IMG/VR virus record: IMGVR_UViG_2737471860_000005
Reading direction: 5' to 3' (one strand)
Length of the DNA stretch: 10,662 bases
Source of the DNA: a virus
Lineage: Duplodnaviria; Heunggongvirae; Uroviricota; Caudoviricetes
In this document: positions 1 through 9,650 of the stretch, one piece after another
How the letters are laid out: each line of letters begins with the position of its first letter
Position numbering within the stretch: the stretch's first letter is position 1
Notes under the pieces: model-generated
The model's input: the letters and a program-made list of their open reading frames with translations, nothing else
Told to the model about the DNA's origin: nothing
Database searches by the model: none
Position numbers and translations under genes: made by a program

Positions 1-53
1 GGCCATAACAGTATCTACGCAGTACCTGTAATATATTGAATCTGCAGGACTTT

Positions 54-87
54 GTAGGCCAGATAAGGCGTTAATGCCGCATCAGGC
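54..87. repeat. REP (repetitive extragenic palindromic) element in the 3' flank of ybiU
   Basis: GTAGGCCAGATAAGGCGTTAATGCCGCATCAGGC closely matches the enterobacterial REP consensus as I recall it (GTAGGCCGGATAAGGCGTT..CGCCGCATCCGGC), with imperfect dyad symmetry; it lies in an intergenic position downstream of a gene end. Confidence 0.6.
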
Positions 88-169
88 ATTAAGAAAGCGC
101 ACTTGTCAGCAATCTGAGTAACGTCGAATCGATTTTCTTAATCCCACATCAATTCACTTCCATTAACTC

Positions 170-1435
170 TCAAACATCCATGCCCAACGCTCGCTTACCG
201 TGAATGTTGAGGTCGGCAAGCGTAAAGCGTCCTTCCCAGTTTGTTTCATAGTCCTCGCGCGGGAAGTCGCCCGGCGATGCGCCTTTTTCCAGTGCGGCCT
301 TCACCTTGTGCGCGTAGGCAAGATTTTTCTCGCACATCGGTGCCGCAGGAATGTACATCACGTTGCCCCAGCCCTGTTGATTTTCAACGGGGGCAACGGA
401 ATGGATGACGTCGCAGTGCCACCAGACGGAGTCTCCGGCTTCGAGTTTTGGAATGCTGGTTAACGCCTCAATCAACAGTGGATGCCATTGCTCTGATACC
501 GGCAATACTCTTCCGGGCGCTACGCCGCACAGTTCATCCTCCGGCACATCATCAAGCAGCGGACGTAACAGTACGTACGCCATGGCTTCAGGAATGGGCA
601 CGACGTGCAGCAGCCCCTGACCAGGCAGCATATCAGAGAGCGCTGTCCAGCCCTGGAATGTCCGAAACACGGAACATTTGGTGGTGTTGTCCACCGTGTA
701 CTCTTCAACTTCCGTACGATGTGCCGCATGCCAGGGATCATATTGCGCCAGATTGCCATTAAAGACGTTGGCGAAAACGCGCTGATACGCTGGAAGCAGC
801 CAGCGTTCCAGCGCCCCGGAGTCGGTATGCGCTCCAAGACCTTTGGAGGTCGTTCCGGGCGGACGGCGGCGGATACGGTCAGGGTAGATGACGCTCACAT
901 CCGGGTTAAACCATTGCTTTCCATCACTTTCAAATGTCCACAGACGATTGAGAAACGACTGCGCATTCGCCATTTCTTCACTCTGGCGGGCCTGCATTTG
1001 CGCCTGCGACCAGTAGATGGGGTAAATCTCGGGACGTGAAGCGCTGAGCGTCCCGAAGAAATTATCGCCGGGGCCTTTGTAGACCTCGTCAAAGCGGTTG
1101 CGGTCCAGATAGTCCAGCATCGACTGATCCCAGCCTAGCGCTTGTTCGCGGGGGAAATGGCCTTTTATCACCGCACAACCGCGACGTTTAATCTGTTCGC
1201 GCTGATCTGCAGTAACATGACCTGCTTTGATATCGGCATAAGACAGCACCGGCCAGACGGCATCGCCCTGTGCTTTGAGTGCGTTGATTTCAGCCACTCG
1301 CGTGGCAATGTCATCGCTTAGCTGATTAAAGATCTGCTGGACGTCGCCAAGCTGCGCCCGCAGCGCGTGCTTCATCTGACGGATAGCTGCTTTGTGATCG
1401 GCAGGCAATGTGTCGCTGGTAAAAGTAGAAGCCAT
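170..1435 (-). CDS. ybiU: YbiU, DUF1479-family protein of unknown function
   Basis: Long uninterrupted minus-strand ORF; the translation (MASTFTSDTLPADHKAAIRQ...) is recognised as E. coli YbiU. The ORF track starts at GTG 1439-1441, but ATG at 1433-1435 preceded by GAGGTGG is the more likely start, so I give 1435. Confidence 0.88.
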   Translation of the reverse strand: MASTFTSDTLPADHKAAIRQMKHALRAQLGDVQQIFNQLSDDIATRVAEINALKAQGDAVWPVLSYADIKAGHVTADQREQIKRRGCAVIKGHFPREQALGWDQSMLDYLDRNRFDEVYKGPGDNFFGTLSASRPEIYPIYWSQAQMQARQSEEMANAQSFLNRLWTFESDGKQWFNPDVSVIYPDRIRRRPPGTTSKGLGAHTDSGALERWLLPAYQRVFANVFNGNLAQYDPWHAAHRTEVEEYTVDNTTKCSVFRTFQGWTALSDMLPGQGLLHVVPIPEAMAYVLLRPLLDDVPEDELCGVAPGRVLPVSEQWHPLLIEALTSIPKLEAGDSVWWHCDVIHSVAPVENQQGWGNVMYIPAAPMCEKNLAYAHKVKAALEKGASPGDFPREDYETNWEGRFTLADLNIHGKRALGMDV

Positions 1436-1485
1436 AACCACCTCTCATTAACTTTCATTCGAAACCATTCTGATTTGCATGTGAC

Positions 1486-1514
1486 AATATAAGTTATAAA
1501 TAAGTTAATGCAAG
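1486..1514 (-). promoter_or_regulatory. Candidate sigma70 promoter for ybiU
   Basis: On the minus strand: TTGCAT (1514-1509), 17-bp spacer, TATATT (1491-1486), about 45 nt upstream of the ybiU ATG. Hexamer match only, no other support. Confidence 0.25.
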
Positions 1515-1542
1515 TTTAATGATTTGATGTGATGTACAGGAT

Positions 1543-1578
1543 GTAAAAAGAAGGGAAAACCGGAGCGCACGGCTCCGG
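1543..1578 (-). terminator. Rho-independent terminator downstream of ybiV
   Basis: Perfect 7-bp inverted repeat CCGGAGC/GCTCCGG (1560-1566 and 1572-1578) with a 5-nt loop; on the minus strand it is followed directly by a U-rich run (UUUUCCCUUCUUUUU, 1559-1543), 9 nt after the ybiV stop codon. Confidence 0.6.
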
Positions 1579-1586
1579 TAGAGAGG

Positions 1587-2402
1587 TCAGCTGTTAAAAG
1601 GGGATGTGTTATCCAGCACCGCCTGAATCACATTCAGCGCGCCTTCATGATTATTATCATCGGTAGCGTAACGGGCGATTTGTTTAATGTTTTCCGCAGC
1701 ATTGCCCATCGCAAAGGAATAACGCGCCATTTTCAGCATCTCCGCATCGTTACCGCTGTCGCCAATCGCTACCACATTTTGCGGTGACAGATCCCAGCGT
1801 TTCAGTAACCGCGAAATACCGTTTGCTTTATGTAGACCGGGAATAATCAGGTCGATAAAGCCAAAACCACTGGTGACGGGTTTCATAATGCCATCGAGCG
1901 CTATGTGCAGTTTGTCGATCACTAACGGGATTTGTTCATCTGGCAGGTTGAGCGAAAACTTGAACAGTACGTCGTCAATCTCCTGATAATCTTTTACAGC
2001 TTTCAGGCGATGGTAGTGTTTTGCCATCAGTGCGACAAATGCTTCGGGGGCATTTTCGCTGACATATGCACTTTGCAGACCGCAGGCGACAAAATTGAGT
2101 TGCTTATCTTTTAGCAACTCGCCAATAACAATCCGCGATTCATGTCGGGTCAGTTCGCCGTGGAACAGTTGCTTGCCATGTTCGTAAACCAGTGCGCCGT
2201 TTTCCGCGACAAAAGAGATCTCATCCTTTAGCTCAGGAAAGAACGAAATAAGCTGGTAATACTGATTACCGCTGGCGACAACGAACTCAATGCCGCGCTT
2301 TTTCAGTTCCTGATATTGCGCCATAAAACGTGGTTGGTTGTACGTTTTGGCGTCGTTAAGAAAAGTACCGTCCATGTCTGTGACGATAACTTTTACGCTC
2401 AT
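1587..2402 (-). CDS. ybiV: HAD-superfamily (Cof-type) sugar phosphatase YbiV
   Basis: 271-aa ORF with the N-terminal HAD motif DMDGT ([11 protein letters not shown]) and a C-terminal GDSGND motif; recognised as E. coli YbiV. AGGAG lies 7 nt upstream of the ATG. Confidence 0.88.
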
Positions 2403-2516
2403 AGGTGTGCTCCTGGCTCGAAAATGAAACCGTAACAGTGTAATAACAATGTGACGCAGAGCACAAATTATATTTCGAATGAAAGTAAGGATGAAATTGA
2501 TGATGTGAATGATTTA

Positions 2517-2539
2517 GCCCGGCGACGCCGCAGCCGGGC
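2517..2539 (-). terminator. Hairpin downstream of ybiW, possible weak terminator
   Basis: 7-bp inverted repeat GCCCGGC/GCCGGGC with a 9-nt loop, 9 nt after the ybiW stop. The following minus-strand sequence is only modestly U-rich, so terminator function is uncertain. Confidence 0.3.
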
Positions 2540-2547
2540 CGAAGAGA

Positions 2548-4980
2548 TTACAGCATATGTTCAGTACGAGCGATGATATCGTCCTGAGCGTCTGGAGAGA
2601 GCGCGGTGAAGAAGGCGGAATAACCCGCGACACGCACTACCAGATCGCGGTACTGATCCGGATGTTTTTTCGCCTCCAGCAGCGTTTCGCGGGAAACGAT
2701 GTTGTACTGAATATGCCAGCCTTTATGCACCTCGAAGAAGGTGCGCAGCAGGATCATCAGCTTCTGCTTGTCAGATTCGTTCTCCAGCGTTGCCGGATTC
2801 AGTTTCTGGTTGAGCAACACGCCGCCGAGAATCGCTGCCGTAGGCAGTTTACCCACCGAGCCAATGACCGCAGTAGGGCCGAGATGGTCAGTACCAGAGG
2901 CCGGACTAGCGCCTTCTGCCAGCGGGGTGTGGGCTTTACGCCCGTCCGGCGTTGCCATAGTTTGCGCGCCAAACGGTACGTTAGCGGAGATAGATGACGT
3001 ACCCGCGTAATAGTTGCCGCCAACCGGACCACGACCGTAGCGCGGATTATGGTACTGTTTCAGTTCGTCGATATAGGTCTGATAAGCGCGAGCCAGCAGC
3101 GTATCGACAGTATCATCGTCGTTGCCGTACTTCGGCGCACCGTTAATCAGCCGCTGACGCAGTTGCTCATGAGTCAGGCCATCGAAGTCATCCGCCAGTG
3201 CGGCAGCCAGCTGTTGCTGACCAATCGCGCCCTGTTCAAATACCAGTTTCTTCACTGCCGCCAGGCTGTTGCCGAGGTTGGCAATGCCAACCTGCAGGCC
3301 AGAAACCCAGTCATATTTCGCGCCGCCTTGCTTGATACTTTTCGCTCGCTCAATACAGTCATCCACCAGCGCCGAGCAGAGAATATCGTGCACGTTCTCT
3401 TCCAGCATGGTGTCGACGACATATTCGATTTCGATTGATTTACGCGTGTAATAACGGATTTGCGTATCCCACGCGTCCATTACTTCATCGAAATTGTTAA
3501 AGTTGCCTGCCGACAACGCTTTTTCTTGTGGCAGGAACACTTTGCCGCTGGTGGCATCACGCCCGCCTTCCAGCGCCGCCAGCATCACGCGGGCGAAGTT
3601 GATAAAGCTCATGCCGGTACAGCGATAGCCCCATTTGCCACCGACGGCGGTTTCGATACAACCAATCGCTGCGTAGTCGTAAGCGTCCTGCGGTTCAATA
3701 CCGAGTTTAATAAATTCCGGGATCACGATTTCGTCGTTGTTGAACGCCGGCATCCCGAAGCCGCAACGGATCACCTGTACGCAGGCGTCGAGGAAATCAT
3801 TACTCATTCCTGCATGGTAACGCACGCTGAGGTTAGGCTGAGTGGAACGCAGGCGACCGCAGGATTCGAGGATCGCGTAAGAGAGGGGATTCACTGCATC
3901 CATTGGTTGACCATCAACCAGATTTTGTCCGCCAATGGTAACGTTCTGATACAGCGGACTTCCCGCAGAGGCTTTTGAGTGTGAGCCGGAGCGGATCTTG
4001 TTCACTTCCAGCAGTTTCAGCCAGCAGCTATGTAGCATCTCGATGGCGTGTTCGCGATCCAGCGTCTGGTTGAGTTCAACGTCGCGGCGATAGTACGGGT
4101 AGAGATACTGGTCCATACGACCAAACGATACCGAGTGACCGTTAGATTCGATCTGCAAAATCAATTGGATGAAGTAACACAGTTGCAGCGCCTGCCAGAA
4201 AGTCTGCGGCGGCTGGTGGGCGATAAGATCGCAGTTTTCTGCCATCGTCAGCAGTTCATCGCGACGGCTTTCGCGAGTTTCGGTAGCAGCCATTTCACGC
4301 GCCAGGGCAGCGAAACGTTCAATGTGTTCACTGACTGCCACCAGCACGATATCAATCGCTTTCAGGAATTGTTCGCCATGTAAATCTTCCAGCACCGTCA
4401 GATTGATGCGCGAGCGACGTTCCGCTACTTTCTCACGCAGACCATCAAGACCTTTTTCCAGCAGCAGCGGGAAATTCACCGCCAGGTGCGCATCGCCGGA
4501 GGTCATATTGCCTTCCGCTTTAATGATTCCGGTCGCCAGCAGACCTTTTTGCTCATCGGTAAACATGCCGTAGCAGCGATCCTGTACGGTCTGACCGCGC
4601 CACCACGGGCACACTTCATGCAGAACGCGTTTGTTCTCTTCGCTCACCGCAAAGCCAGCACCGGGACGATCTGCCAGATCATCAATCTCTTTTTCGATCC
4701 ACGAGACAGTATATTCCGGGAAGATCGGCGCGGCGCGAACTTCGCTTGCCTGGTTGCCAATGATCAACTCATCGTGTTTGATCCAGATGGTGCGATTCGC
4801 CAGGTGATGCGCCAGTGCCAGCGCGCGACGTACCGGGATCGGCTTATCGAGATGTTGTTGATACATCTCGGTATAGTGCTGCGCGCGCTCGGTACAGACT
4901 GGCGGTTTCACAATATGCACCAGCGCATTTTTGTGCGCTTTAATGCGGTCGCTGAGCGTGTCCAGTTTCAGTGTGGTCAT
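2548..4980 (-). CDS. ybiW: Glycyl-radical enzyme of the pyruvate formate-lyase family (YbiW/PflF)
   Basis: 810-aa ORF with a C-terminal glycyl-radical signature (VVRVAGYSAFF) about 30 residues from the end; the size and motif fit PFL-family glycyl-radical enzymes. Its ATG (4978-4980) sits 6 nt after the ybiY stop with GAGGA inside the end of ybiY, suggesting translational coupling. Confidence 0.88.
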   Translation of the reverse strand: MTTLKLDTLSDRIKAHKNALVHIVKPPVCTERAQHYTEMYQQHLDKPIPVRRALALAHHLANRTIWIKHDELIIGNQASEVRAAPIFPEYTVSWIEKEIDDLADRPGAGFAVSEENKRVLHEVCPWWRGQTVQDRCYGMFTDEQKGLLATGIIKAEGNMTSGDAHLAVNFPLLLEKGLDGLREKVAERRSRINLTVLEDLHGEQFLKAIDIVLVAVSEHIERFAALAREMAATETRESRRDELLTMAENCDLIAHQPPQTFWQALQLCYFIQLILQIESNGHSVSFGRMDQYLYPYYRRDVELNQTLDREHAIEMLHSCWLKLLEVNKIRSGSHSKASAGSPLYQNVTIGGQNLVDGQPMDAVNPLSYAILESCGRLRSTQPNLSVRYHAGMSNDFLDACVQVIRCGFGMPAFNNDEIVIPEFIKLGIEPQDAYDYAAIGCIETAVGGKWGYRCTGMSFINFARVMLAALEGGRDATSGKVFLPQEKALSAGNFNNFDEVMDAWDTQIRYYTRKSIEIEYVVDTMLEENVHDILCSALVDDCIERAKSIKQGGAKYDWVSGLQVGIANLGNSLAAVKKLVFEQGAIGQQQLAAALADDFDGLTHEQLRQRLINGAPKYGNDDDTVDTLLARAYQTYIDELKQYHNPRYGRGPVGGNYYAGTSSISANVPFGAQTMATPDGRKAHTPLAEGASPASGTDHLGPTAVIGSVGKLPTAAILGGVLLNQKLNPATLENESDKQKLMILLRTFFEVHKGWHIQYNIVSRETLLEAKKHPDQYRDLVVRVAGYSAFFTALSPDAQDDIIARTEHML

Positions 4981-4985
4981 GGTTG

Positions 4986-5340
4986 TTATCCTCGTAAGGT
5001 CGCGGTTAACCCTTTCTGGCAGGCATACTGCTGGGCAAAGTCGAGCAGTTCTGGCGCATCAAGCGGTTTTTCCGGGGCGTCATAGGGCAGATTAAGTAAG
5101 TGATATTTGTTGATGCCCAGCGTGTGGTAGGGCAGAAAATGAATTTCGCCAACGTGCAGCTCGTCGGCGGCAAAATCGGTAATGGCTTTTACAGAGGTTT
5201 CGTCGGCATTAAAGCCCTGAATCAGCGGCACGCGGATAATGATTTTTTTGCCCGCTGCGGCGAGTTTTTTCAGGTTATCCAGCACCCTGGCGGCGTTACC
5301 GTCGGTCCACTGTTTAAACGGCGCGTCGGCAACGTGTTTT
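4986..5340 (-). pseudogene. ybiY: 3' fragment of the glycyl-radical-enzyme activating enzyme gene ybiY (pflE), truncated by prophage insertion
   Basis: The reading frame ending at stop 4986-4988 (...[28 protein letters not shown]...) runs upstream without an ATG to about 5340, where composition switches abruptly to AT-rich phage-end sequence and a stop appears at 5349-5351. The N-terminal part, which should carry the radical-SAM CxxxCxxC motif, is absent from this window. The activase identity rests on gene order next to ybiW and on memory. Confidence 0.75.
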
Positions 5341-5359
5341 AAATATGACTAGGTAATTT

Positions 5360-5491
5360 ATTCAAGATAACCGGGAAAAGATTAAAAAAGACGGGATTTG
5401 ATGGGATTCAATAAGTTAGGTACTGAACGCATTCAAGATAAAACGTACCGAAAACGCTCAACGCCTCGGGAACGATAAAACATTCAAGATA
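5360..5491 (+). repeat. attL transposase-binding-site repeats (L1-L3-like)
   Basis: Three direct copies of the 10-bp core ATTCAAGATA at 5360-5369, 5431-5440 and 5482-5491. The middle copy continues AAAACGTACCGAAAAC, resembling the MuA end-binding consensus that ends in CGAAAA. Confidence 0.6.
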
Positions 5492-5542
5492 GGCGCGCCG
5501 TGTATTTTAAGCCTTTTAAGACATTTCAAAAACATCAGTATG

Positions 5543-5610
5543 GCCTTTAAAAAAGAATTTTAAAGGCACCATGAAGGCAGGTCAATGAAGTTAACCTGCC
5601 TTCGTTTTTA
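5543..5610. terminator. Tandem hairpins at the 3' end of the repressor gene; intrinsic-terminator-like on the plus strand
   Basis: Hairpin A: 10-bp inverted repeat GCCTTTAAAA/TTTTAAAGGC (5543-5552 and 5558-5567), 5-nt loop. Hairpin B: 9-bp stem GAAGGCAGG/CCTGCCTTC (5573-5581 and 5595-5603), 13-nt loop that contains the c stop codon, followed on the plus strand by GTTTTTA (5604-5610). Confidence 0.4.
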
Positions 5611-6106
5611 CACTCTCTGAGAGAATACTAGCTTCAATCTCCGCCAAAATCTCTCTGACTTGCTCGTCGGGCATATCGACCAGCATCAACGCAGCTAGGC
5701 GTTTACGGCCCTCCAGTTGCAGCAATTCTTGATTTTCCTTATCTAACAAGCGTAGCACGGTCTCAACACCTTTCCTTGCGAGCATGTTGGTTAGGGCCTC
5801 TCGTTCCTCATTGGTAAGAAACGAGAGCATTTCAATTAGCTGATCGCCTTGGCTTAAATTACTTTGTAATTCTTGTGTTTTTGGTGAATTTCCGTTACCT
5901 GTTTTTAACCATTCAAGACTAACGCCTTCACTTTCTGCAATGCGTACCAATATGCTTTCACGAGGCTCTGGTGTGTTTCCCTTTTTAAAATAGCTTTGTA
6001 ACGTGTTGATATTTATTCCCCAAGCTCTGGCGGCAGCACTTCTTGATGGATATCGCCTAATAAGATAGGCCATGCGCTCTACGATAGGTTCTTTTGCCTG
6101 CTCCAT
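5591..6106 (-). CDS. c: Prophage repressor (Mu c-like C-terminal region, HTH N-terminal domain)
   Basis: 171-aa ORF transcribed divergently from ner, with GGAGG 7 nt upstream of the ATG. The N-terminal region looks like a helix-turn-helix (SRSAAARAWGININTLQSY). The C-terminal segment LAALMLVDMPDEQVREILAEIE resembles the Mu repressor C-terminal region as I recall it. Position and orientation match Mu c. Confidence 0.7.
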   Translation of the reverse strand: MEQAKEPIVERMAYLIRRYPSRSAAARAWGININTLQSYFKKGNTPEPRESILVRIAESEGVSLEWLKTGNGNSPKTQELQSNLSQGDQLIEMLSFLTNEEREALTNMLARKGVETVLRLLDKENQELLQLEGRKRLAALMLVDMPDEQVREILAEIEASILSESVKTKAG

Positions 6107-6297
6107 AAAAGTACCTCCAGGTATTTTTCTGCTTAAAGGTTCTTTTCTATCTATCTAATTGAATAGAAATGAAATCTTAAAAAACCAATAAAAATACAAA
6201 AAATACCTTGAATAGGTACTTTTTGTGATCTACGATTTTATTCACTCGGATATCCGCGCGAATATCCGAGCGGGTAATTTTGTAGGGTAAAGGAAAG
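6107..6297. promoter_or_regulatory. Divergent early control region (Pc/Pe promoters and operators; possible enhancer)
   Basis: 191-bp AT-rich intergenic region between divergent c and ner. It contains two copies of TTGAATAG (6159-6166 and 6208-6215), the partial palindrome AAAATACC-N7-GGTACTTTT (6200-6224), A-tracts, and a possible rightward promoter TTGAAT (6208-6213), 17-bp spacer, TACGAT (6231-6236). It lies about 770-960 bp from the left end, comparable to the Mu operator/enhancer position. Confidence 0.5.
6245..6270. promoter_or_regulatory. Palindromic operator-like site upstream of ner
   Basis: CTCGGATAT-CCGCGCGA-ATATCCGAG: 9-bp perfect inverted arms. The left arm contains the self-complementary 10-mer CGGATATCCG (6247-6256), and the half-site ATATCCG recurs 12 bp later (6262-6268). 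It sits 28-52 bp upstream of the ner ATG, just downstream of the putative early promoter -10. Confidence 0.45.
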
Positions 6298-6549
6298 ATG
6301 AGACAAAGAGAAGATAGTGGCCGCGATTGGCCTTCGCTGATGATTCAGCAGGCACTCAAAGATAATGGGTGGTCTTCCTTTCGGGAGCTTTCACTCCATG
6401 CAGGTTATGCTCAGGATTCACTGAAAGCGGTAGTTCGTACACCAAACAAAAAATACGAACGCGTTATTTCTGACGCTATAGGTGTCCCGCCAGAAGTCAT
6501 CTGGCCCAGCCGATACCGTAATGATGGAATAATCAGGAAGGCGTCGTGA
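6298..6549 (+). CDS. ner: Ner-like DNA-binding early regulator
   Basis: 83-aa ORF with AAGGAAAG upstream. It contains RDW near the N-terminus and PEVIWPSRY near the C-terminus, both matching phage Mu Ner and the Ner/Nlp family as I recall them. It is the first gene of the rightward early operon. Confidence 0.8.
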   Translation: MRQREDSGRDWPSLMIQQALKDNGWSSFRELSLHAGYAQDSLKAVVRTPNKKYERVISDAIGVPPEVIWPSRYRNDGIIRKAS

Positions 6550-6550
6550 T

Positions 6551-8647
6551 ATGCAGTCGTACGTTACCGTAAATGACCTGCTCGGTGTTCCTGGAATGCC
6601 AGCCACAGCAAAAGGCATCCGACAGGCGTTACAGCGTTTTTCTCGTGGTCTTGGTGACATGAGCCGCCGTAGGGAAGGCTCAAAAGCCATTGAGTACCAC
6701 ATTGATTGCCTACCGGAAATAACACAAAAGGCACTACGTGAACGTTATGTGGAACAACTAGTAGCTACGGAGAACAACGTTTCTGAAGTAAAAGCTGTTA
6801 CTAGGAAGACACGTAATCCCGATGCTGTTCAGGCGATCGAAGCATATCGCGGTTCTCCGCAACTGATGGAAGAACGCCTGAATGCACTTACCGAAAACCA
6901 GCGTCGGGTATCTGAAGCAAGGGCAGCGCTGGTGGTGGAAGTGCTGAAGCTGGAAAGCGCCGGTAACATCGGGCGACTGAAAGCCATTAACTTTCTTGTT
7001 GAAAAGGCTCGTAAAGACGAGCTGCCAGAGCGACTGCAACAGGCCGCGATTAACGCCAATGCAAAACGTGGCGCTAATCGCACTATCAGCCGTGATCCGC
7101 TTTACCAGTGGGTACTGAAATACAACCAGTCGCGGAATGCCGCAGAACGACTGCTGTTACTGGCACCAGGTAAACGTGACGAAATAAAACCGGAAGAAAT
7201 TAGCTGGCTACCTGAATTTCTGGCGCAGTATCGCCAGGTGAACGGCAGACCTATGTCTGAAGCCTACGAGGATTTTGTCGCGGAATGGCAGCGTCGCCAT
7301 GCAGACGAACCGTACATGCTGGAGGTGATGCCCTCTTACGATGTGGTTCGTTATGCCATGAAGAAATTGCCGGAAGTGGTGAAACAAAAAGGACGCGTTA
7401 CCGGCAGTGAATACCGTCAGCTTGAAGGATTCACCCGTCGCAACTGGACCGCTATGCCGGTGAATTATGTCTGGATTGGTGACGGTCACGGTATGAAGCT
7501 GAAATGTGCGCATCCGATCCACGGGCGTCCATTCTCACCAGAAGTCACGTTTGTGATCGATGGTGGAACACGGTTTGTTGTTGGCTGGAGTCTTGACCTT
7601 GCCGAGAACGTGTTCGCCGTTGCCGGTGCAATACAGCACGGCATTCGTAACCACGGAAAACCGTTCCTGTATTACTCGGATAACGGTTCCGGTGAAACGG
7701 CAGATATGCTGGATAAAGAGATTGTCGGGATTCTGCCCCGTCTGGGCATTAACCACCCCACCGGTATTGCGGGAAATCCACAGGGACGCGGCATTATTGA
7801 ACGCCTGAACCGGACGCTGCCGATGCGTATAGCCAGGAAGTATCGCACCTATTTTGGCAAGGGTGCTGACCGGGAATCATTGCGTGTGCTCAATCGCGAT
7901 CTGCGTTCAGCATTTAATGCCCTGCAACAGGACAAACCGCTGAATGCTCGCCAGAAATCTGCAATGCGTGAGCTGCCATCATGGACAGAACTTATCGAGG
8001 CTATTCGTGAAGGTGTGGAATGGTACAACAACCGCCCACATTCTGAGCTGCCGATGAAACCTGACGGACGGCATTACAGCCCGGCAGAATTCAGAAAAAA
8101 ACGCCTGGCAGAAGAAGACACCGAAATTGAGTGGCTGAGTGATCTTGAGCTGCGCGACATGTTCCGCCCGATGGTGGAACGGCCTGTAAGACGGTGCGAA
8201 ATTCAGTGGCTGAACAATATTTACTACGCGCCGGAATTGCGTGACGAACACGGCCGCAAAGTTCTTATCAGTTATGACATTCATGACGCAGAGCGAATTA
8301 CGGTACGCCGTAAAGACGGCAGCTTTATTTGTGAGGCGATATGGAACGGCAATAAACGCGCAGCCTTTCCTGTCACGGCTGAATATCACAAACAACAGCA
8401 GCGTATTAAAGGAATGCGCAAACGTGCTGAGGAAAAAATTCGTGATGCTGAAGATGAAGGTATCCAGATTCTGGAACACAAACAGTCTGAACCATGTCTG
8501 GATAATGTTTATCGCCCGGTTGGTAATACGGTAACCGTCCAGCAACAGGATTATGAAGAGGATTACGACGAAGATTATAAACGCGATTTCTGGCTGGGTT
8601 TGCAGAAACTTGCAGCCATACAGGAACAGGATGATCCGCTGGCCTGA
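6551..8647 (+). CDS. A: Mu A-like DDE transposase
   Basis: 698-aa ORF starting 1 nt after the ner stop (TGAtATG). The N-terminal motif GSKAIEYHIDCLP resembles the MuA/Mu-repressor winged-helix motif (GVKGGKAIEY). Candidate catalytic residues are D311 (WIGDGH), D377 (YYSDNGS) and E417 (IIERLNRTL), followed by WYNNRPHSEL, typical of a retroviral-integrase-type core. Confidence 0.88.
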   Translation: MQSYVTVNDLLGVPGMPATAKGIRQALQRFSRGLGDMSRRREGSKAIEYHIDCLPEITQKALRERYVEQLVATENNVSEVKAVTRKTRNPDAVQAIEAYRGSPQLMEERLNALTENQRRVSEARAALVVEVLKLESAGNIGRLKAINFLVEKARKDELPERLQQAAINANAKRGANRTISRDPLYQWVLKYNQSRNAAERLLLLAPGKRDEIKPEEISWLPEFLAQYRQVNGRPMSEAYEDFVAEWQRRHADEPYMLEVMPSYDVVRYAMKKLPEVVKQKGRVTGSEYRQLEGFTRRNWTAMPVNYVWIGDGHGMKLKCAHPIHGRPFSPEVTFVIDGGTRFVVGWSLDLAENVFAVAGAIQHGIRNHGKPFLYYSDNGSGETADMLDKEIVGILPRLGINHPTGIAGNPQGRGIIERLNRTLPMRIARKYRTYFGKGADRESLRVLNRDLRSAFNALQQDKPLNARQKSAMRELPSWTELIEAIREGVEWYNNRPHSELPMKPDGRHYSPAEFRKKRLAEEDTEIEWLSDLELRDMFRPMVERPVRRCEIQWLNNIYYAPELRDEHGRKVLISYDIHDAERITVRRKDGSFICEAIWNGNKRAAFPVTAEYHKQQQRIKGMRKRAEEKIRDAEDEGIQILEHKQSEPCLDNVYRPVGNTVTVQQQDYEEDYDEDYKRDFWLGLQKLAAIQEQDDPLA

Positions 8648-8720: not shown

Positions 8721-9650
8721 ATGACCGATATTAATGATGTTTTCAATACGATTAGCTCACTGATTACTGACAGCGTAAAAACTCAGAGCGTTATTGCTAA
8801 AGAGGCAGGCGTGTCAGAGGCCACACTCTCGGAACTCCGCAAAGGTCGTTACAAAGGCGATACCGAAGGGATGCATGACAAATTACTGATGTGGTATCAG
8901 GCCTGGCAGAAAAGCCAGGAATTACCAGGCGCACCGCAACTTGTGGAAACACAAACCCTGCGTGATTTGCGTGAACTGTTCCAGACGGTGCGTGTTATGG
9001 GGTGTATCAGCGTTCTGGTTGGTGTGCCGGGGGTAGGAAAAACCGTTGCAGCCCGTGAATACAGTAATCGGGTATCTAATACCTGGATGGTGACCCTTTC
9101 CCCTGCACACTCAACGGTGACTGAATGTCTGCTGGAACTGGCAGACGCGCTGGGAATTGATAATCCGCAAAGGAATAAAGGTGCACTGACCCGTGCCATT
9201 CGCAAAAAACTGAATGGTACACGCGGTCTGGTTATTGTGGATGAAGCTGACCACCTGAGCATTGACGGGCTGGAACAATTACGTGCCATTCAGGATGCCA
9301 CCGGAGTCGGGATGGTATTGATTGGTAACCCCAGCCAGTTAGCCAAAGCCACACATCGGGGAACGGATGACCTTGCACGTTTGTTCAGTCGTTTCGCCAT
9401 GACAAAGCAACTACGTAAAGCCAAAAAGGCTGACGTGGTGGCAATTGCAAAAGCCTGGGGCATTGAGGGCGAAGATGAATTATCACTCATGCAGAGTATC
9501 GCGGAAAAACCAGGTGCATTACGTGTATTAACTCATACGTTGAATCAGGCGTGGCTGGCAGCCAGCGGGAAAGGCGTTCCTCTGTCCAAAGACTACATTA
9601 AAGCGGCTTTTAAAGAGGTTTACAGCAACCCGAAATTACTGAACTGGTAA
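8721..9650 (+). CDS. B: Mu B-like AAA+ ATPase (target DNA activator)
   Basis: 309-aa ORF with Walker A GVPGVGKT (residues 101-108) and Walker B LVIVDEAD (about 170-177), plus an N-terminal HTH-like segment (SVIAKEAGVSEATLSELRKG). It lies immediately downstream of the transposase, as in Mu. Confidence 0.85.
   Translation: MTDINDVFNTISSLITDSVKTQSVIAKEAGVSEATLSELRKGRYKGDTEGMHDKLLMWYQAWQKSQELPGAPQLVETQTLRDLRELFQTVRVMGCISVLVGVPGVGKTVAAREYSNRVSNTWMVTLSPAHSTVTECLLELADALGIDNPQRNKGALTRAIRKKLNGTRGLVIVDEADHLSIDGLEQLRAIQDATGVGMVLIGNPSQLAKATHRGTDDLARLFSRFAMTKQLRKAKKADVVAIAKAWGIEGEDELSLMQSIAEKPGALRVLTHTLNQAWLAASGKGVPLSKDYIKAAFKEVYSNPKLLNW

Follow-up and report, generated by a model that had tools for sequence, protein, structure and literature searches.

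The contig analyzed here joins E. coli chromosomal genes to the early region of a phage, and it raises the question of where the prophage begins, what kind of end it has and which protein reads the repeats found there. The whole stretch of DNA under study, referred to below as the window, comprises 10,662 nt (Table 1). A first-pass annotation of its sequence had described the attL of a Mu-like prophage. The host–phage junction, the order of the early genes and the repeats agree with this assignment. The region 5344–5500 is very probably the attL of a transposable Mu-like prophage inserted in ybiY of E. coli, and its cores are the putative transposase docking sites L1–L3. The end resembles the attL of Mu, yet it is not of the MuA type: it is an ordinary kind of feature with a different site, different termini and a different duplication.

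Table 1. Features of the window, with positions counted from its first base
Feature	Position	Strand	Remarks
Window	10,662 nt		whole draft contig JWZI01000080.1, assembly GCA_000818995.1
ybiU (Gig2-like), ybiV (HAD hydrolase), ybiW (glycyl-radical enzyme)	within 1–5343	−	Pfam
ybiY, 3′ part (glycyl-radical enzyme activating protein), cut by the insertion	4986–5343	−	matches intact ybiY at 100% identity as far as the junction
Left copy (predicted) of the 4-bp duplication of the target site, TAAA	5340–5343	.	empty site GTGTTTTAAATCGGC
Left terminus 5′-TATGACTAGGTAATTT	5344–5359	+	first core follows after these 16 nt
Core 1 (L1) ATTCAAGATA	5360–5369	+	exact copy; element positions 17–26; invariant in 8 left-end variants
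Conserved L1–L2 stretch AACCGGGA...CGGGATYTGATGGGATT	5369–5408	+	homologous to Mu bases 29–68; candidate pac or bending element
Core 2 (L2) ATTCAAGATA	5431–5440	+	exact copy; element positions 88–97
Core 3 (L3) ATTCAAGATA	5482–5491	+	exact copy; element positions 139–148
Putative immunity repressor, 171 aa, placed like Mu gene c	5591–6106	−	Mu-like gene order
Ner-like regulator	6298–6549	+	Pfam HTH_35, E 4.6e-14
Transposase, 698 aa, proposed core-binding protein	6551–8647	+	residues ~136–195 are the candidate recognition cassette
MuB-like AAA+ target-DNA activator	8721–9650	+	Pfam Phage-MuB_C and AAA_22; 44% identical to MuB

The left boundary of the prophage can be placed to the base. Positions 1–5343 of the window correspond to the minus strand of the E. 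coli chromosome, and the prophage follows from 5344. Comparison of the intact ybiY gene (...GTGTTTTAAATCGGCAAG) with the window (...GTGTTTTAAATATGACTAGG) puts the junction at 5343/5344, inside the interval 5330–5350 expected by the first-pass annotation. The host side is matched up to 5344 by all 5426 complete E. coli genomes, the agreement of T5344 with the host base being due to chance, and none of these genomes carries the same ybiY insertion. The same phage, with a 100% identical transposase, is found beside folX in another sample, where the sequence is identical from T5344 on and unrelated before it. Related left ends are located in narI, yhfX, fliH and one plasmid gene, and at five more flanks on six IMG/VR contigs, and all of them start with TATGAC. 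Altogether 13 independent junctions share this start, and the base before it may be A, C, G or T. The 13 differing flanks and the folX copy thus define T5344 as the left end of the prophage. The dinucleotides TG at 5335–5336 and 5346–5347, between which the end had been sought, are both present, but neither is the terminus because all 13 junctions begin with TATGAC. The 13 different flanks and the short duplications show insertion at many unrelated sites. The boundary adjoins an early region with the Mu order of repressor, ner, transposase and MuB-like gene. Few complete E. coli genomes contain this transposable-phage lineage: of the 5426, 4 have left ends and 6 have right ends. The insertion removed the 5′ part of ybiY, the gene for the activating enzyme of the YbiW glycyl-radical enzyme, and the YbiW/YbiY pathway of the host is presumably inactive in the strain carrying the window.

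The three direct core repeats that had been annotated at 5360, 5431 and 5482 are exact matches to ATTCAAGATA. They are spaced 71 and 51 bp apart and lie within 132 bp, and no other exact copy occurs in the window. When up to one mismatch is allowed, the window contains 7 matches against 0.54 expected, a number reached in none of 200 shuffles. Alignment of 8 distinct left-end variants shows that the nine bases TTCAAGATA are invariant at all three sites; the L2–L3 interval, by contrast, is largely scrambled. At L2 these bases are unchanged in all variants though both flanks differ, and the L3 core is invariant in every variant at element position 139 or 140. Over 23 distinct sites of the 8 left-end and 4 right-end variants, TTCAAGATA does not change although the flanks do, and outside the core the only information in these 23 sites of both ends is AA at positions −5 and −4. 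Since the sites share little beyond the 9–10 bp core, a second half-site as in the 22-bp MuA site is not evident. Among the three cores of the window, only the middle one is followed by ACGTACCGAAAAC, as was initially described. This extension had been read as a sign of unequal sites; it is not conserved and does not match a Mu half-site, and therefore gives no evidence for unequal affinity. Its candidacy as a Mu half-site was ruled out by the lack of a consensus match and of conservation in the relatives, although an A-run about 13 nt downstream of L2 recurs in most variants. A GC-rich palindrome, GGCGCGCC, stands directly 3′ of L3 (5492–5499) in most variants, and the right ends of the relatives have a similar GCGCGC at 4 nt from their tip (TTTTGCGCGCTTTA; locus L010, 36078–36091).

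The right end was studied in relatives of the phage. A complete prophage of 35.2 kb is present in yhfX of strain STEC346. Its transposase is 92% identical to that of the window, and its first 32 bases, including the first site, are the same. Its right end reads ...TATCTTGAAT-N25-TATCTTGAAA-N12-TATCTTGAATAATTTTGCGCGCTTTA, and contains the inverted copies of the core that the first-pass annotation had predicted for this end. There are three of them, starting 17, 39 and 74 nt from the tip. The same pattern is present in three IMG/VR contigs, in STEC388 and in 06-00048, with diverged spacers and identical offsets. Counted from the respective tip, position 17 is the start of L1 as well as of R1, and R1 and R2 are 22 bp apart. 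The right terminus of the relatives, TAAAGCGCGCAAAATT, is equal in length to the left terminus. The element thus starts with TATGAC... on the left and ends with ...GCGCGCTTTA-3′ (...CTTTA) on the right in the relatives, that is, with TA and not with TG/CA.

The size of the target duplication follows from the same relatives. The empty yhfX site is CAGCATTCGCTG, and the occupied site reads ...CAGCATTC before TATGAC... at the left and, after ...CTTTA at the right, ATTCGCTG. Comparison of the two therefore shows that the four base pairs ATTC are duplicated. For the 4-bp duplication GATA, the joined flanks gave one gap-free match to E. coli ybjI with 88% identity, and the duplications CAGG (fliH) and TATA (06-00048), also of 4 bp, were read from their two flanks only. 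A 4-bp duplication is thus seen in four pairs, of which one was verified directly on an empty site and another through the joined-flank search; in GenBank record LC727895, a related Mu-like phage is also annotated as having a 4-bp duplication. The duplication of 5 bp assumed for this prophage has to be corrected accordingly; alternative definitions of the ends that would give 5 or 6 bp were rejected against the yhfX empty site. The right junction of the window's own prophage, searched for as GCGCGCTTTA plus 0–6 nt plus TCGGCAAGAAAC... in species-representative genomes, gave no match, and a second contig with the same phage breaks off about 3 kb before the right end. If the attL reading is true, this junction would read ...TATCTTGAATAATTTTGCGCGCTTTA followed by TAAATCGGCAAGAAAC, and the inverted cores would lie at distances of 17, 39 and 74 nt from the tip.

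Genome 06-00048 provides a control, as it also contains a true Mu-type prophage, with TG...CA ends and the 5-bp duplication GCGAT. A left end of the window type joined to a true Mu right end in this genome was first taken as evidence against matched ends. The prophage appears to be a recombinant of a Mu-type and a window-type prophage, and the case therefore supports the rule that ends are matched. In this genome (NZ_CP015229) the Mu-type prophage is chromosomal, in an rhs gene, and the window-type prophage lies on a phage-plasmid-like replicon. The two appear to have recombined, which leaves two hybrid prophages separated by about 100 kb of plasmid DNA (L005, 1150–36205; L030, 3001–3103; L031, 4014–4200). 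Since the same plasmid is also on deposit as a replicon of its own, this arrangement may be an assembly artefact. In FDAARGOS_943 (L004, L029) and STEC388 (L009, L028), the window-type prophage is broken by IS elements, and its two ends are now separated by about 0.9 Mb; this implies that the genome underwent large rearrangements once the phage had inserted.

The protein most closely connected with the cores is the product of the transposase gene. It contains the Mu C-terminal domain, a weak match to the integrase core and an N-terminus of the Mu I-alpha type, and in its structural model the folds of I-beta and I-gamma resemble those of MuA. Three phages use a different core, (A/T)TTTGATAC: Yersinia phage vB_YpM_5 (MT374853), the LC727895 phage located in a Stx phage, and a prophage of E. 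coli DEC12A. Their transposases belong to the lineage of the window's and are 76–82% identical to it, but only 35–37% identical in residues 136–200. Between vB_YpM_5 and the window, identity is 97% in residues 201–300 and 37% in residues 136–200. Comparison of five proteins of the ATTCAAGATA type with three of the TTTGATAC type revealed 21 fixed differences, all in residues 85–193 and 19 of them within residues 138–193. A Salmonella prophage, whose transposase is 56–80% identical elsewhere, keeps the cassette residues together with ATTCAAGATA cores spaced 71 and 52 bp apart. The core type, as judged from these sequences, co-varies with residues 136–195 of the transposase. This co-variation is not a statistical proof, because it involves two core types and eight proteins that are related by descent and by mosaic recombination. 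The cassette includes a motif typical of the recognition helix of a helix-turn-helix, which is RTISRDPLYQWVLKY in the ATTCAAGATA type versus RTLSAITLKRWIAAF in the TTTGATAC type. Residues 136–195 probably sit in the I-beta-like part, a placement made by domain order and not by residue-level superposition. Phage vB_YpM_5 (L022, 4560–8023) is otherwise Mu, its MuB, small terminase and large terminase being 99%, 99.5% and 97.6% identical to those of Mu. It is essentially a natural graft, a Mu with the transposase gene and both ends swapped for those of the window lineage (82%), with TTTGATAC cores.

We propose that the cores at element positions 17, 88 and 139 are the left docking sites for the DDE transposase encoded by the prophage itself. 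The helix-turn-helix in the I-beta-like subdomain (residues ~136–195) would read each core. The left cores, together with the three inverted cores of the right end, would assemble a transpososome of the Mu type, which would nick after the terminal A of the 5′-TA...TA-3′ ends and join them to the target with a 4-bp stagger. The binding of the transposase to the cores, the chemistry of cleavage and the role of the L1–L2 stretch are inferred.

The similarities to the attL of Mu and the MuA transpososome are considerable. Both systems have three transposase sites at the left end, the first about 5–27 nt from the tip, and three at the right end with an R1–R2 distance of 22 bp, and both have the same order of early genes. 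The transposase shares the I-alpha/I-beta/I-gamma arrangement, the DDE core and the Mu C-terminal domain, and the L1–L2 stretch is homologous to Mu bases 29–68. Unlike in Mu, however, the site core is ATTCAAGATA and not ...AARYRCGAAAR; the latter motif has no match in 5344–5500 even with one mismatch, and elsewhere in the window there are 2 against 4.2 expected. Over the core, the identity between the transposase and MuA is just 24%; in the end-binding region of the transposase no sequence match to MuA was found, and the PDB sequence matches to MuA are marginal. The termini are TA...TA versus TG...CA, the duplication is 4 bp versus 5 bp, and the sites L1–L2 and L2–L3 are spaced 71 and 51 bp here versus 105 and 40 bp in Mu. 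The three right-end cores of the relatives have the same orientation, whereas R3 of Mu is inverted. The phages of the TTTGATAC type share the core offsets of 17 at the left and 17, 39 and 74 at the right, but their L2 and L3 are at positions 121/163 or 112/164. The terminal sequences of the window type, TATGA... and ...GCGCGCTTTA, are shared by vB_YpM_5 and, where sequenced, by DEC12A; LC727895 differs with ends TGTAACC... (TG, not TA) and ...GCGCTATA (...GCTATA).

More distant systems resemble the window in part. Tn7 also has multiple TnsB sites at its ends; it carries no phage genes, makes a 5-bp duplication and is a different type of element, so the likeness is one of architecture only. The transposases of Haemophilus SuMu and of the Pseudomonas D3112 group are related to that of the window, with 42% and 30% identity, and B3, D3112 and SuMu are likewise transposable phages that leave short target duplications. 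A 6-bp duplication has been reported for B3 and a 5-bp duplication for Mu (PMC8705779), compared with 4 bp in the window lineage. No paper describing these ends was found in the literature; members of the lineage are deposited in public records, one of which annotates the 4-bp duplication. The ends are not described in the paper on vB_YpM_5 (PMC10434027).

The DNA between L1 and L2 had been noted as Mu-like, and this impression holds. After the first core comes ACCGGGAAAAG...GACGGGATTTGATGGGATT at 5370–5408, and positions 5369–5408 are identical to Mu bases 29–68 (AF083977) at 29 of 40 positions, which was equalled in 3 of 2000 shuffles. The stretch lies at nearly the same distance from the left tip in both phages (offset 26 here versus 29 in Mu). 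It is strongly conserved over the 8 left-end variants, with the DNA past element position 77 diverging, and vB_YpM_5 is intermediate between the window and Mu in this stretch (35/43). We take the pac site of Mu to map to roughly bases 32–58; literature searches yielded no published Mu pac coordinates. Packaging of Mu begins at the left end (PMC2837660), and the Mu L1–L2 spacer is bound by HU, as cited in PMC3145075. Most likely, the stretch has a role in head-full packaging that starts at the left end (pac), in protein-induced bending, or in both. The reading of 5369–5408 as pac is plausible but unproven. The presence of the motif was compared with the similarity of the small terminases, and the two do not track cleanly, because LC727895 is without the motif though its small terminase is closer to that of Mu (57% versus 47% for the phage of the window). 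In LC727895 (L026, 2094–2300) the Mu-like CCGGGA...GATGGGAT stretch is absent between L1 and L2.

The early genes next to the left end follow the Mu pattern. The repressor ORF gave no Pfam match, and homologous repressor ORFs occupy the same place in the relatives. The similarity between the N-termini of repressor and transposase known in Mu was sought and not found. The MuB-like gene is followed by Kil-like and gp6-like genes. A hairpin, GAAGGCAGGT...ACCTGCCTTC and then GTTTTT, is located on the plus strand at 5573–5603, where it overlaps the repressor stop codon, and is kept in the relatives; it could stop host transcription entering the prophage. Two palindromes, each with the half-sites TACCT and AGGTA and with A/T runs on its flanks, lie between the repressor gene and ner at 6107–6128 and 6196–6226 and are probably operators. 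The second of them contains a one-mismatch core, ATTCAAGGTA, at 6204–6213, which looks coincidental.

The assignment of the cores to the transposase has to be weighed against other functions. They could be operators for the prophage repressor, for Ner or for another regulator, as the repressor gene has its 3′ end about 100–230 bp away from them and the one-mismatch copy falls in the repressor–ner intergenic region. However, this copy is the centre of a TACCT/AGGTA palindrome, and the other such palindrome contains no core. Operators are also difficult to reconcile with the inverted recurrence of the cores at the right end, where any early promoter is 35 kb away and the offsets from the tip are fixed. 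Left-end variants with repressors of different length (171 versus 195 aa) keep the same cores, and the core type tracks the transposase cassette. We regard an operator function as very improbable. Small terminases often bind repeated motifs, and the cores might instead be recognition repeats of this enzyme, with the repeat array itself as the pac site. The packaging of Mu from the left end (PMC2837660) would fit such a role, yet the right end has an equal number of cores and packaging starts elsewhere. Phage vB_YpM_5 has the small terminase of Mu and uses TTTGATAC cores that are absent from Mu, and the cores follow the transposase cassette and not the terminase. A terminase array is scarcely credible as an explanation of the repeats.

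A further alternative accepts the docking sites but regards the end as a relic, left by a defective prophage whose repeats no longer function. It is favored by the fact that the window covers only the first 5.3 kb of the prophage and that several relatives are truncated by IS elements, and contradicted by the presence of the identical phage in another sample, at a chromosomal site unrelated to ybiY, by the intactness of all early ORFs in the window and by the unmutated cores. Such decay seems unlikely. The preferred reading thus remains that of an attL with three transposase docking sites.

The finding allows the prophage boundary to be annotated to the base, with its start at 5344, ybiY inactivated and TAAA as the predicted duplication. 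It also documents a 4-bp duplication and TA termini in a Mu-like group; the reviews consulted cite only 5 or 6 bp. The most useful aspect of the finding is the natural swap of specificity. It offers a natural pair of end specificities in close transposases, in which about 20 changed residues stand against a changed 9-bp core. This pair is a compact system for studying how transposases of the Mu type read their ends, and possibly a source of orthogonal mini-Mu tools. We tentatively suggest, as a picture that may or may not hold, a Mu-like lineage with 3′-TA ends, a 4-bp stagger and a swappable cassette (residues ~136–195) matched to interchangeable ATTCAAGATA and TTTGATAC cores, which would yield mutually orthogonal systems. 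Mu-type and window-type prophages are both present in genome 06-00048. If the systems are indeed orthogonal, different Mu-like prophages would be able to share a cell without cross-mobilizing each other.
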